Shown piece by piece: positions 29,173 to 37,069 of a stretch of DNA of 64,000 bases (position 1 is its first letter; each line of letters opens with the position of its first letter). Under the pieces are notes generated by a model. The model saw nothing but the letters and a program-made list of their open reading frames with translations, made no database searches and had not been told where the DNA came from. A program made the position numbers and the translations under genes. Source of the DNA: an uncultured Verrucomicrobiae bacterium. Its GTDB lineage: Bacteria; Verrucomicrobiota; Verrucomicrobiia; Chthoniobacterales; UBA10450. The stretch is taken from contig CAWFGO010000001.1 in the NCBI GenBank assembly GCA_963815455.1, positions 1,440,001 to 1,504,000 on the forward strand, written 5' to 3'.

Positions 29173-32100
29173 ATGCCGCGGAACGATCACATCAAGAAAA
29201 TCCTGCTTATCGGCTCCGGTCCAATCGTGATTGGGCAGGGCTGCGAGTTCGATTATTCCGGTGTCCAGGCCTGCAAGGCGCTGCGGGAGGAGGGGTACCT
29301 GGTCGTGTTGGTCAACTCCAACCCGGCCACGATCATGACCGATCCGGAGTTTGCCGATCGGTACTTATATAGAGCCAATCACGGCCGAGGTCATCGAAGC
29401 GATCATCGAGCGCGAAAAGCCGGATGCGCTTCTGCCGACCATGGGCGGACAAACCGCGCTCAATGCGGCCATGGAGTTGAATCGCAGCGGCGCGCTCGCC
29501 CGGCACGGGGTGAAATTGATCGGCGCCAATGCCCAGGCCATCGCCAAGGGCGAGGATCGACAACTGTTCAAGGAAGCGATGTTGCGAATCGGCCTCGACG
29601 TGCCGCGGTCCGGGATTGCGCGGTCGATTGTCGATGCTAATCGCGTGGCCGATGAAATCGGAAAGTTCCCGCTTATTATTCGCCCGGCATTTACCCTGGG
29701 CGGGAGCGGCGGCGGCATTGCCTACAATCGCGACGAGCTCCAGGAAATCGCCGATCGCGGCCTGTCGCTTTCCCCGGTTACCGAAGTTCTCATCGAAGAA
29801 TCACTCGTGGGCTGGAAAGAGTTCGAGATGGAAGTGATGCGCGACCGGATGGACAACTGCGTAGTCGTCTGTTCCATCGAAAATTTCGACCCGATGGGCG
29901 TGCATACCGGCGATTCGATTACGGTCGCGCCCGTACAAACACTCACCGACAAGGAATACCAAATGATGCGCGACGCGGCCTTCGCCGTGATCCGCGAGAT
30001 CGGGGTCGAGACCGGTGGCTCGAATATTCAATTCGCCGTGCATCCGGACACCGGCCGGATGGTCGTGATCGAAATGAACCCACGCGTCTCGCGTTCGAGC
30101 GCGCTGGCTTCGAAAGCCACCGGATTCCCAATCGCCAAAATCGCCGCGAAGCTCGCGGTTGGCTACACGCTGGACGAAATCAAGAACGACATTACCCGCG
30201 AAACGCCAGCCTGTTTCGAGCCGACCATCGATTACTGCGTGGTCAAGGTTCCGCGGTTCACCTTCGAAAAATTTCCGCAAGCGGACCCGACCCTGACGAC
30301 GCAGATGAAAAGCGTCGGTGAAGCGATGGCGATTGGCCGAACATTCAAGGAAGCGCTGCAGAAAGCGTTGCGCAGCCTCGAGATCAAACGGTTTGGGCTC
30401 TGCGACGACGGCGCCGACAAACATGTCGATCCCGAAACATTGCGCCTGAAACTTTCGGTTCCGAATGCCGAGCGCATCTTCTATATGGCCCAGGCATTCC
30501 AGGACGGCATGTCGATCGATGAAGTCTTCGACCTGACGAAGATCGACCGGTGGTTTCTTCGAAACGTGGCGGAGATTGTCAAGGAAGCGCGCTCTCTCCT
30601 TCGTAGCACAGGCATCTTGCCTGTGGGGCCGGCGGGCGTCTCGCCTGCCGAACTGGAAGCCCCCATAGGCGTTTCCGCCCCTCAATTCCATGCGGTGGAT
30701 CCGCGCGACGCGGTCGTCAGGCCCCGCCGAAACTTGCCGCATTGGGAGCAAGCGGGCGCCACGTATTTCGTAACCTTTCGTTTGGCCGACGCCGTCCCAC
30801 AGGAAGTTCTTCGCCAATGGAAGGAGGAATTGCAGACGTGGATGAAATTTCATCCTGAGCCCTGGGATGCTGCAACCAAATACGAATATCAAAAGCGATT
30901 TCGGGACGATCGGGAGCAATGGCTCGATCAGGGCCGCGGTGAATGCCTGCTCAAGAAGAGTGACATTTCGGGCATTGTGATTGATTCACTGGGACATTTC
31001 GATGGTCAGCGTTATTTGCTGGACGCGTTCGTGGTGATGCCGAATCACGTGCATGTCCTCGTCCAGCCGGTGGCGGGTCAGTCCCTTTCCGATATCCTGC
31101 ATTCTTGGAAATCGTTTTCAGCCAAGGCGATTAATCGCCTCCTCGAAAGGACGGGGCCGGTTTGGCAGGAGGAGAGCCATGACCGAATCGTGCGCGATTT
31201 AGAGCATTTGATCCGCTGTCGCGATTACATCACGCGCAATCCGGAGATGGCGCGGCTGCGAGAAGGCGAATTCGTGTTGTATGCGACCGGAAGACTGGAG
31301 ACGAGTTTAGACTCGACAGGCGGGTCGCCTGCCGGCCCCACAGGCAAGATGCCTGTGCTACAACCGCTCCTCCGCGCAAAAAAGCTGGGCTTTTCGGATC
31401 GGCAACTGGCGGTAGCAGCGAACCGGACCGAACACGAAATCCGCGCCGGCCGGAAATCGGCGGGCATTCTCCCAACCTATCGGCTCGTCGATACCTGCGC
31501 GGCGGAGTTTGAGGCTTACACACCTTACTATTACTCGACCTACGGCGACGAGAACGAGCGGCGCGAGAGCGGCAAACGCAAGGTCATGATTCTCGGCGGC
31601 GGACCGAATCGGATCGGCCAGGGAATCGAGTTCGATTACTGCTGCGTCCACGCAGCATTCGCCCTGCGCGAACTCGGATTCGAAACGATCATGGTTAACT
31701 CGAATCCGGAAACGGTTTCGACCGATTACGACACGAGCGACAAGCTTTATTTCGAACCGCTCACGCTCGAAGACGTGCTCAACATTTACGATCAGGAAAA
31801 GCCGGAAGGCGTGGTCGTGCAGTTCGGCGGACAAACGCCGCTCAATCTCGCCAACGGTTTGAAAGAAGCAGGCGTGCCGATCCTGGGAACGCAGCCGGAG
31901 AGCATCGAGACCGCGGAAGATCGACAATTGTTCGCCGCCATGCTCGACAAACTCGGGCTGCGGCAAACGCCGAGCGGCTCGGCGGTCAGCGCCGATGAAG
32001 CTGTGGCTATCGCAAGCAGGATCGGCTATCCGGTGCTGGTTAGGCCCTCGTTCGTTCTCGGCGGCCGGGCCATGGAGCTGGTTTACGCCGAAGAAGATCT

Positions 32101-33121
32101 CCGTCGCTACATGGCGAACGCGATTGAAGCCAGCCCGGAGCGGCCGGTGCTGGTCGATCGGTTCCTGGAAGACGCCTTCGAGGTCGATGTCGATTGTATT
32201 TCCGATGGCGAAACGACCGTGATTGGCGCGATCATGGAGCACATCGAGCAGGCCGGGATTCATAGCGGCGACAGCGCCTGCGTGATCCCGACCTTTTCTC
32301 TGGCCAAGAAAGTGATCGACGAGATTTCATCGGCGACCAAGGCAATGGCGCGCGAACTAAAAGTGCGTGGACTGATGAACGTGCAGTTCGCGGTGAAAGG
32401 TGAGGATGTCTACGTGTTGGAAGTAAATCCCCGCGCGTCGCGCACAGTGCCGTTCGTGAGCAAGGCGATCGGCGTTCCGCTGGCCAAGCTCGCCGCCAAG
32501 GTGATGGTCGGGAAATCTTTGCGCGAGCTCGGGTTTACCGCGGAAATTGTTCCCAAACATTTTTCGGTAAAAGAAGCCGTTTTCCCCTTTCTGCGCTATC
32601 AAGGCATCGATATCTCACTCGGGCCGGAAATGAAATCGACCGGGGAAGTAATGGGGATCGATGTCGATCTTGGCCTGGCCTATGCCAAATCTCAGATGGC
32701 CGCGCCGCCGCGCTTGCCCAAAGGCGGCAGTGTCTTCGTCAGCGTCAAGGATAGCGACAAGGAAGTGGTTATTCCGGTGGTGCGCGAATTTGTCGATCTC
32801 GGCTTTGGCATCATCGCCACCAGCGGTACCGCCGCTGCGCTGGCCAAGGCGAAAATCCCGGTCCAAAACGTTTTCAAGGTTCGCGAAGGCCGGCCAAACG
32901 TTCTTGATCGGGTCAAGAACGGCGACATCACGTTCATCCTCAATACGCCGAGCGGAAAAATTCCCCGCGAAGACGAAGTCCGGATTCGTAACGCCGCCCT
33001 GGCCCAAAAAATTCCGATCATGACGACCGTTCGCGCCGCCCAGGCCAGCGCCAACGGCATTCGCTCGCTGCAAAAGAGCAAGGTCGGCGTACGAAGCCTG
33101 CAGGAATACCATGGCAAATGA
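29173..33121 (+). CDS. carB: carbamoyl-phosphate synthase large subunit with a 253-codon in-frame insertion (apparent frameshift ~29365)
   Basis: '[17 protein letters not shown]', '[19 protein letters not shown]', '[15 protein letters not shown]', 'EVNPRASRT', C-terminal MGS domain. Confidence 0.97.
30603..31361 (+). mobile_element. REP-flanked RAYT (IS200/Y1 HUH transposase) unit in frame within carB
   Basis: 49-bp inverted termini starting GTAG (30603-30651 / 31313-31361, 45/49 identical); encodes '[47 protein letters not shown]'. Confidence 0.92.
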
Positions 33122-33179
33122 CGAAATCCGAAATCCGAATAACGAATGTCGAAATAGCCCAAATCCTTTAGGCCGCTCT

Positions 33180-33210
33180 ACGGGATGTCTCGACTTCGCT
33201 CGACATGACA
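33180..33210. repeat. single arm of the GTCAT/ATGAC repeat, copy d
   Basis: ACGGGATGTCTCGACTTCGCTCGACATGACA; 30/31 reverse complement of 33849-33879. Confidence 0.8.
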
Positions 33211-33839: not shown

Positions 33840-33849
33840 AATGCCTCTT

Positions 33850-33931
33850 GTCATGTCGAGCGGAGTCGAGACATCCCGTTGTAGAGCCTTAAGATAATGC
33901 CGCGGGATTCCTCGACTTCGCTCGGAATGAC
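33850..33931. repeat. GTCAT/ATGAC palindromic repeat, copy e
   Basis: GTCATGTCGAGCGGAGTCGAGACATCCCG..CGGGATTCCTCGACTTCGCTCGGAATGAC. Confidence 0.85.
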
Positions 33932-34802: not shown

Positions 34803-34911
34803 GTAGCACAGGCATCCTGCCTGTGGGGAAAGCGGGCGTCCCGCCTGCTGTCTCCCTCCCATTCCGCGGGCAAGATGCCCGCGTGCCCCACAGACAAGAT
34901 GTCTGTGCTAC
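34803..34911. repeat. REPIN (inverted REP doublet) cognate to the carB RAYT ends
   Basis: GTAGCACAGGCATCCTGCCTGTGGGG..CCCCACAGACAAGATGTCTGTGCTAC. Confidence 0.9.
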
Positions 34912-36001: not shown

Positions 36002-36022
36002 TTTTCTCGCAATGCATGCACC

Positions 36023-36115
36023 GTCATCCCGAGCGACGTCGAGGAATCCCGTTGCGTCAGCTTTAAGGTTTCGCCACGGGGTCCTTCGACTCCGCTCCGC
36101 TGCGCTCGGGATGAC
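36023..36115. repeat. GTCAT/ATGAC palindromic repeat, copy f
   Basis: GTCATCCCGAGCGACGTCGAGGAATCCCGT..ACGGGGTCCTTCGACTCC..GCTCGGGATGAC. Confidence 0.85.
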
Positions 36116-36182
36116 AGAAGGGGATTGCGCTCTGCTCCCGCCACGGCGAGCAGGCAGAACGACACACTGCATTAGCAAGGTA

Positions 36183-36969
36183 ATGCGATCTTCGTTGCTG
36201 GTTCTGCTGGCGACAGTCACATCTCAAACTGCTTTCGCAGTTTCTTTCAAGGAATCGCCCGAGCTGGGAAAGATTTTCAAAGACAACGGCGTCGTCGGGA
36301 CATTCGTCCTGTTCGATGTGGGCGCGGACACAATGTTTGTCTGGAATCGAGACCGGGTCAGGCAGCGTTTTATCCCAGCGTCCACATTCAAGATCGCGAA
36401 CTCGCTCATCGGTCTCGACGCCGGCGCGGTGAAAAATGTCGATGAAGTGCTGCCTTACGGAGGCAAACCGCAATGGATCAAGGCCTGGGGAAAACGACAT
36501 GGGATTGCGCGAAGCGATCAAGATTTCCAACGTCGCGATTTATCAGGAACTGGCCCGCCGCATCGGCCTGGAACGAATGCGCGAAGGCGTAAAGAAGCTC
36601 GGCTACGGCAACATGGAAATCGGCAACGTGGTCGATCGTTTCTGGCTGGATGGGCCGCTAAAAATTTCTGCGATCGAACAAACGGAATTTCTGAATCGGT
36701 TGACCGCCGGGAAGCTGCCGGTCAAGCCGGGCGTTATCGAAGCGGTACGGGAAATCACGCTTCAGGAAAAAACTGCCGACTATGCGCTTCACGCCAAGAC
36801 TGGATGGTGTGCGTCAACCAATCCACAAATTGGCTGGTGGGTTGGCTGGGTGGAACGGGGCGACAAGATTTATCCATTCGCGCTCAACATCGACATGTTG
36901 ACCGACGAAGACGCCCCAAAGCGAATTTCCATCGGCCGGGAGTGTTTGAAGGCGCTGGGGAAACTGTAG
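36183..36969 (+). CDS. class D (OXA-like) beta-lactamase, frameshift ~36490
   Basis: STFK, SNV, YGN, 'FWLDGPLKIS' and KTG motifs; signal peptide. Confidence 0.88.
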
Positions 36970-37069
36970 CCGCTGGCGCCGCCCGCGGCCGCTGTAGAGT
37001 CCGCGTCCTCAGCAGACGGGCGCCTTGACTGGATCCTCGCGGGCAACCGCGGTCAGCGCCCGCGGCTAC
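36967..37069. repeat. GTAG-type REP doublet
   Basis: GTAGCCGCTGGCGCCGCCCGCGG..CCGCGGTCAGCGCCCGCGGCTAC. Confidence 0.65.

Follow-up and report, generated by a model that had tools for sequence, protein, structure and literature searches.

A REP-flanked RAYT transposase domain, very likely translated within CarB, recurs in one carB loop across a family of soil bacteria

In a REPtron, a gene for a REP-associated tyrosine transposase (RAYT) lies between inverted GTAG-type repetitive extragenic palindromes (REPs) with copies elsewhere in the genome. RAYTs are described as free-standing, extragenic and vertically inherited, with 'no evidence of tnpAREP mobility', and are held to be non-jumping and kept for an unknown host benefit (PMC8266576, bioRxiv 2021.07.10.451892). 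At an intergenic site in Pseudomonas and Stenotrophomonas, RAYT 'orthogroups' and a REP 'orthoswitch' have been reported, the RAYT being treated as orthologous (PMC3686654). Short palindromes also enter coding frames: in-frame intragenic REPs and Rickettsia palindromic elements are on record, with GTAG repeats most frequently so placed in the verrucomicrobium Opitutus terrae (PMC3733652), and REPs lie in frame within subclass 2.4 tnpA-REP genes (PMC6006769). An IStron (PMC4227781) combines a group I intron with an IS200/IS605 element and is spliced by its ribozyme. Here we analyse a RAYT unit within the carB gene of an uncultured Verrucomicrobiae bacterium (GCA_963815455.1, contig CAWFGO010000001.1, an assembly about 90% complete and called G000 below); the 64,000-nucleotide stretch that holds it is referred to as the window. 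Inteins with homing endonucleases provide a further point of comparison, as they are site-specific alleles in essential genes with a patchy filled and empty distribution, horizontal exchange and co-transfer of short flanks.

In this carB copy the unit is a stop-free REP-RAYT-inverted-REP arrangement of 759 bp (253 codons), laid out as follows.

29173..29361, + strand: 5' part of carB, starting MPRNDHIKK, out of frame with the rest through one extra base at about 29358-29361
29351..33121, + strand: main carB open frame with the insert, 1256 aa, the only carB copy found in G000
30603..30651, + strand: left REP, a GTAG foot and two hairpins (30607-30625 and 30630-30650), read as 15 residues
30652..31312, + strand: RAYT-like HUH/Y1 transposase domain, in which no start or stop of its own was found; core from RNLPH at 30728
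31043..31054, + strand: HUH metal-binding motif NHVH, aligned with TnpA-REP H59/H61
31226..31243, + strand: catalytic Tyr motif YITRNP, aligned with TnpA-REP Y115 and N119; Tyr codon 31226-31228
31313..31361, - strand: right (inverted) REP, read as 15 residues on the + strand
34803..34911, no strand assigned: REPIN, a free-standing inverted pair of the same REP family as the insert arms, 3.4 kb downstream; fold z -6.3

The two 49-nt arms are 92% complementary, begin with GTAG and are identical over their first 31 nt, and each folds as single-stranded DNA (ssDNA) into two hairpins (z -3.5 and -3.1); sequence checks and folding thus bear out the geometry that a first-pass annotation of this DNA had proposed. 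The left REP has a 49/49 identical copy elsewhere in G000 (C2:394709). The insertion site corresponds to E. coli CarB 475-488 and interrupts the Pfam oligomerisation-domain match, in agreement with the location named by that annotation. Its prediction that deletion would leave an uninterrupted CarB was also borne out, as scripted removal of the unit restores the normal 33-aa loop (19 residues read across the join). No second intact carB, which would have made this copy a dead insertion, was found, the gene being single-copy in the G000 assembly. The earlier wording that the unit sits exactly in frame inside carB holds for the insert of this copy; across relatives the REPs end at no fixed base, and the extra base upstream, which leaves the start at 29173 out of frame, had been overlooked.

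The insert is a REPtron in the sense given above, being a gene between inverted GTAG-type REPs that have copies elsewhere in the genome. It matches Pfam Y1_Tnp with 27 bits (cut-off 23), and profile alignment to E. coli TnpA-REP (4ER8; E 1.5e-4) aligns NHVH with H59/H61, the Tyr with Y115 and the Asn with N119, so that the HUH and catalytic Tyr motifs first recognised from the sequence alone both fall on TnpA-REP residues. The metal ligands and catalytic residues of that protein, including N119, H123 and E161, are named in PMC3479197; the C-terminal tail carrying E161 did not align. In a 402-aa model (24 filled alleles) the RAYT part mostly reached pLDDT 82-94, with the REP-derived linkers below 50 and the CarB parts poor, and a Foldseek search with the RAYT model returned 4ER8 as the best match (E 2e-5), followed by ISDra2/IS200 transposases. 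A 1199-aa model (pLDDT 46.7, pTM 0.28) was set aside as low confidence. Cumulatively, the likeness to the E. coli REPtron covers the HUH/Y1 fold, the catalytic motifs, GTAG-footed hairpins on both sides and dispersed cognate REPs, as well as the association of different REP types with different RAYT subclades. The carB RAYT differs in having neither start nor stop of its own, in lying inside an essential gene, in being swapped between lineages, and in carrying a helical insertion of about 45 aa after the first strand and an Ala at H123. By motif only, its NHVH, WQ and YITRNP resemble the row for TnpA-Y1 subclass 2.7, for which PMC6006769 gives [ND]HVH, WQ and YI[LR][NQ]NP together with long REPs.

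The arrangement is real and widespread in one soil bacterial family. In what follows, clade A denotes the RAYT lineage of the window's insert and clade B a second, distinct RAYT lineage. The family sample comprised 151 genomes, 137 of them with a match, and clade A occupies the same carB loop in 41 of the 151 and, in addition, in G035 from another family in the order; clade B is present in at least 6 of the family genomes, and others are empty or scarred. Filled and empty sites, the comparison of which had been suggested as a check, are both found among relatives. Ninety fully read junctions, which were picked from search results and do not represent a frequency, comprise 36 with clade A, 6 with clade B, 33 short loops (32-39 aa) and 15 longer ones, several of which are plainly REP scars. 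The loci that failed the junction pattern (G022 twice, G034, G163, G108, G123, G031) were re-inspected: G022, G034 and G031 have no RAYT in the loop, G163 is filled and cut by a contig end, and G108 and G123 are filled with frameshifts. G006 was left out of the carB tree for its length and two short cores were left out of the RAYT tree, while the unpublished genomes G003 and G008 supply two non-filled rows, on which alone no claim depends. CarB fusions make up 118 of the 120 best long homologues in the database; many bear an automatic JGI name that joins CarB and RayT, and the names point to Chthoniobacterales. A phylum sample (250 genomes, E 1e-45) yielded no further filled carB with this query; 33 of its genomes had related RAYTs elsewhere.

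Other housekeeping genes are occupied as well. In G000, 4 of 18 RAYT-family matches lie in long housekeeping frames, and in-frame clade-B RAYTs with repeat arms are present in three single-copy genes:

C5:89932-92700: RAYT locus in recG (L179)
C2:122843-126500: RAYT locus in alaS (L180)
C3:169636-174159: RAYT locus in metH (L181)

In relatives, in-frame copies of related RAYTs occur in valS, purL (two sites), clpB, leuS, a RarA-type ATPase gene, a threonylcarbamoyl-AMP synthase gene, a type I restriction subunit gene and hypF; free-standing copies exist too. The search for Y1 domains with REP-derived arms in other housekeeping genes, which the first-pass annotation had recommended, was thus productive, and the carB insert is no isolated in-frame case.

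Three further sets of insertions were noted along the way. In other classes of the phylum, related in-frame RAYTs occupy two different sites in B12-binding radical SAM proteins, and others lie in HypF and ahead of a MurC domain (L165, L166, L167, L169, L173, L177). The database holds a 661-aa protein that scores as multiple RAYT domains and a related RAYT within a 1682-aa methyltransferase-type protein (P0002, P0003). The carB genes of G035 (L004) and G031 (L140) carry a further insertion later in the gene, that of G031 near position 673-675 of the insert-free query.

The evidence that the insert is read through comes from the frame itself. Of 45 filled alleles spanning both junctions, 43 are in frame, the exceptions being G108 and G123. 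The linkers of 42 alleles contain no stop in 2711 in-frame codons as against 42 and 85 stops in the other two frames (left linker 0 in 1491 codons, other frames 29 and 50; right linker 0 in 1220, other frames 13 and 35), although these alleles are related by descent and the counts are not independent. None of the 42 alleles combines a start codon with a Shine-Dalgarno-like site in the 13 codons before the core, and 28 of the 42 have no start codon there at all. A Met lies just upstream in several free-standing relatives, and the 14 that were examined all stop 7-49 codons past the Tyr motif. Judging from these sequences, the insert is very likely translated as part of a CarB-RAYT fusion. Among the fates listed by the first-pass annotation, life as a domain in a core enzyme gains from the recurrence, the frame and the lack of an own start, whereas splicing, ribosome bypass and routine precise excision gain no support. 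Contigs from four soil DNA runs consisted of short pieces from mixed relatives, none of which spans the insert, and the precise excision joint was not among the joints listed; these contigs carry no weight for or against excision.

Two kinds of self-removing element were tried and rejected. An intein is contradicted by a Pfam scan without any Hint family and by junction residues that vary freely. A group I intron or IStron finds no ribozyme match, and the frame is open throughout. The carB inserts nevertheless resemble inteins as a site-specific allele family with horizontal spread; they differ in the missing Hint domain and splice residues, in being apparently kept in the mature protein, in their position on a variable surface loop and in their ssDNA HUH nuclease. 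With IStrons they share a Y1-transposase element made harmless in a host gene, the differences being the missing ribozyme and the open frame. As with in-frame REPs and Rickettsia palindromes, palindromes are read as peptides in loops of housekeeping proteins; those elements are short non-autonomous repeats (single REPs or dimers, about 7-30 aa), whereas here a whole autonomous 250-aa unit with its transposase is involved.

The insert lineages are faithful to their site and exchanged between hosts. In a comparison with 37 copies from other genes or free-standing loci, all 36 clade-A copies from carB fall into a single clade (SH-aLRT 99). The 6 clade-B copies from carB likewise group (87/87), and recG and alaS each host more than one lineage. 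The insert tree conflicts with the carB tree. The sister carB alleles of G070 and G087 are separated by a synonymous divergence (dS) of only 0.19, yet their inserts are 61% identical with saturated dS, and for G105 and G115 the carB dS is 0.39 and the inserts are 54% identical. Approximately unbiased tests reject same-genus grouping of inserts (p 0.0014, 2e-51 and 7e-42), the groups having been chosen after the trees were viewed, and 20 changes between filled and not filled fall on the 73-row carB tree. The vertical inheritance described for REPtrons thus does not hold here.

Alignments place the edges of the exchanged segments close to the REPs. Identity between sisters is 93-100% up to about 40 nt left of the loop and resumes directly after it, and in the segment of G087 just left of the loop 30/30 positions agree with its insert relative G116 as against 24/30 with its sister G070. 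The replacement breakpoints, judged by phylogeny and alignments, fall between a few and about 40 nt beyond the REPs and close to the best-conserved motifs of carB. A systematic flank test gave 21 cases closer to the RAYT-nearest genome, 11 closer to the carB-nearest genome and 2 ties; it is confounded because the segment compared extends into the REP, and the individual alignments were used instead. One metagenome-assembled genome, G024, contains both a filled and an empty carB (L141 and L012, contigs C80 and C314) with 2 differences in about 190 upstream bases, the two alleles diverging about 20 nt ahead of the first REP foot; the pair probably stems from a mixture of strains. Some filled alleles bear remnants of another REP type outside their own REPs, and the arms of G142 belong to different REP types. 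These sequence relationships mark the carB loop as a hot spot at which one RAYT/REP lineage displaces another, something that the first-pass annotation had not anticipated. The REP orthoswitch is similar in that different REP classes flank RAYTs at one site; in carB the RAYT itself is replaced, and within a coding loop.

Loss has left traces in several forms. G132, G050 and G017 each retain one double-foot hairpin; in G018 and G062 a REP pair survives but no RAYT, and G131 has arms together with a RAYT stub. Peptides derived from REPs, adding as many as about 45 residues, persist in scar alleles. In G077 (C14, L147), a partial clade-B insert precedes a repeated stretch of carB and then an empty loop; this may be a chimera assembled from filled and empty alleles, or the locus may be rearranged.

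The RAYT domain shows signs of constraint. Both His, the Tyr, the Asn and the Pro are invariant in 36/36 fully read clade-A copies that are about 50-90% identical, and the catalytic motifs are present in 115/117 and 116/117 database CarB fusions; one clade-B copy (G081) has lost a His, and the G131 allele keeps only its stub. The ratio of nonsynonymous to synonymous divergence (dN/dS) for clade A is 0.04-0.19 where estimable among the 30 closest pairs, with a median of 0.23 (maximum 0.34) in the 6 least saturated of 630 pairs, and that of carB is 0.03-0.10. In G000, where no other clade-A RAYT was found, the REP type of the window has 18 pattern matches including both arms, and a reversed control has 0. 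For another REP type, at least 5 extra copies are present in 10/13 carriers, in 6/27 carriers of other clade-A types and in 0/39 genomes without clade A, the REP types having been assigned by eye. On the strength of the conserved residues, the RAYT likely keeps its REP-cutting activity; the link between REP abundance and carriage is a hint of activity only, because tests on independent pairs, given below, were not significant.

REP hairpins without a RAYT were also seen in coding frames: in a DNA polymerase III alpha-type gene (L182:71-3235; C2:503932, 504055 and 506392 in G000) and at a second metH site (C3:173267 in G000). With a broad REP pattern, 9 of 67 copies lie in frames open for at least 100 codons on both sides.

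Taken together, the data point to an intragenic, unspliced, site-faithful and horizontally swapped REPtron, which we consider the probable explanation. The unit would be translated within CarB from the carB promoter and start, with the REP arms serving as flexible linkers and the RAYT as an extra domain on the variable oligomerisation-domain loop, as sequence and model suggest. Because carB is essential, the insert could presumably be lost only by in-frame deletion and not by stops or frameshifts; deletion between repeats, often with REP scars, would account for the end states observed. By analogy with TnpA-REP, the RAYT would stay active and most likely bind and cut its own REP hairpins on ssDNA and disperse REP copies through the genome. 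Life as a tethered domain is plausible, since TnpA-REP is a monomer (PMC3479197). Each lineage would remain faithful to the carB loop and cross strains and genera by replacing the resident allele, a swap driven most likely by RAYT nicking or strand transfer near the REPs and aided by homology in the flanking conserved carB motifs. The chemistry for such swaps is available, since TnpA-REP cuts and rejoins ssDNA away from the REP and captures flanking sequence (PMC3333891). A RAYT-driven, homing-like spread is nevertheless a tentative proposal. Still more tentative is the broader idea of a non-splicing, intein-like protein-domain parasite, in which every RAYT lineage is bound to a single permissive loop of an essential enzyme (CarB, ValS, PurL, AlaS, RecG, MetH, ClpB and others), is expressed solely within that enzyme and homes by its single-strand HUH nuclease into empty or rival alleles across genera.

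Several observations weigh against the swapped, unspliced REPtron. The arms had been expected to form a long mRNA stem, and this is indeed predicted: folding of naked RNA pairs both arms with probability 0.999 in this copy, and an arm-arm stem of at least 20 bp is predicted in 32/42 alleles and absent from 10/42. Such a stem could slow or divert ribosomes. The match to NF047646 (71.2 bits) is below the cut-off of 80 and leaves the N-terminal third unmatched, and an almost invariant Ala stands at the position of H123, a metal ligand of TnpA-REP. For the window's own REP type, at least 5 extra copies occur in 5/10 carriers, 7/30 other clade-A carriers and 5/39 genomes without clade A, and the independent-pairs tests of REP abundance against carriage were not significant (median p 0.125 and 1). 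Across relatives, no fixed cut site, insertion base or target motif was found, and ordinary recombination could also produce the swaps. Finally, the upstream frameshift in the G000 carB, if real, would mean that this copy is dead. The extra base is absent from 6/6 relatives compared, soil-run contigs of relatives are also one base shorter at this point, and G000 has 11 apparent frameshift clusters in about 41 kb tested, with another near the alaS start. Given relatives without the base and the frequency of such frameshifts in G000, alaS included, it is probably an assembly indel.

The strongest rival also takes the RAYT to be a translated domain, here a domesticated, host-useful REP-processing enzyme that spreads passively, without drive, by ordinary transformation and recombination at conserved carB motifs. 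We regard it as unlikely. The description of RAYTs elsewhere as domesticated and not self-mobile speaks for it (PMC8266576, bioRxiv 2021.07.10.451892), as do a ComEC-family gene in G000 and the closeness of the breakpoints to the most conserved carB motifs, and purifying selection is compatible with passive as well as driven spread. It has to accommodate donor and recipient carB genes that differ by about 20% with a co-transferred flank of only tens of bases. Such a flank is short for RecA-type exchange. Moreover, most family members have no insert and unrelated RAYT lineages displace each other, which fits selfish turnover better than usefulness to the host, and the host proteins are unrelated in function, which makes a role tied to CarB unlikely.

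That RNA splicing or ribosome bypass across the 49-bp stem yields a normal CarB, with rare read-through supplying the RAYT, is improbable. The predicted stem, in this copy and in most alleles, and the 33-aa loop left here by REP-to-REP removal are what it has in its favour. No Rfam ribozyme matched the insert, the only hit being a sub-threshold small-RNA match (E 0.17), and the downstream linker is stop-free in 42/42 alleles, which splicing would not need. Not only do the 10 alleles mentioned lack a stem of at least 20 bp, but cutting at the predicted stem foot gives an in-frame loop of normal length in only 6/32, the feet being imprecise; the G142 arms are of different types, and the scar alleles retain their REP-derived peptides. 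Routine precise excision is likewise opposed by losses that often leave REP scars and not clean joins.

It is hardly probable that the insert is an old passenger, neutral or decaying, kept in frame solely by selection on CarB and devoid of transposase activity, or, for G000 only, that it lies in a dead carB. The upstream frameshift, the lost His of G081 and the G131 stub agree with it, and selection on folding alone can lower dN/dS. Against it stand the invariant catalytic residues in clade A and in nearly all database fusions, and the recent swaps between close relatives; the dead-carB variant is further weakened by the frequent frameshifts of this assembly, including that of alaS. Mis-assembly joining a REPtron into carB via repeats has a negligible chance despite the indel errors of G000 and the chimeric look of the G077 locus, and for the family it is refuted by the same architecture in 41 independent genomes and more than 100 database proteins from several sources.

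Searches of openly accessible papers, bioRxiv supplements aside, turned up no account of RAYTs that form in-frame domains within housekeeping proteins. A large survey of the family set aside members of unexpected length, taking them for fusions or errors of annotation (PMC6006769), which may explain why the arrangement has gone unremarked. REPtrons and short in-frame REPs were already known; the carB site and its site-specific clades are added here, together with direct evidence that close relatives have had one insert replaced by another. The carB set breaks with the described RAYT pattern in being intragenic, apparently translated through and horizontally exchanged at a fixed site. Filled, empty, scarred and rival alleles among close relatives offer a natural experiment on why RAYTs persist, and the inserts map loops that tolerate a 250-residue domain. 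Such insertion would give selfish elements a third means, besides RNA and protein splicing, of residing in an essential gene without harm. If the domain-parasite idea were true, metabolic enzymes of abundant soil bacteria would carry a working DNA cut-and-join domain.

Downstream of carB, an unrelated 45-nt inverted repeat pair (33166-33210 and 33849-33893) flanks a cyclophilin-type gene, and hairpins like these are present at the starts of other genes in the window. A transpeptidase-fold gene at 36012-37028, presumably class D beta-lactamase-like, is split over two frames (36012-37028 and 36436-36969), which may be another assembly indel.

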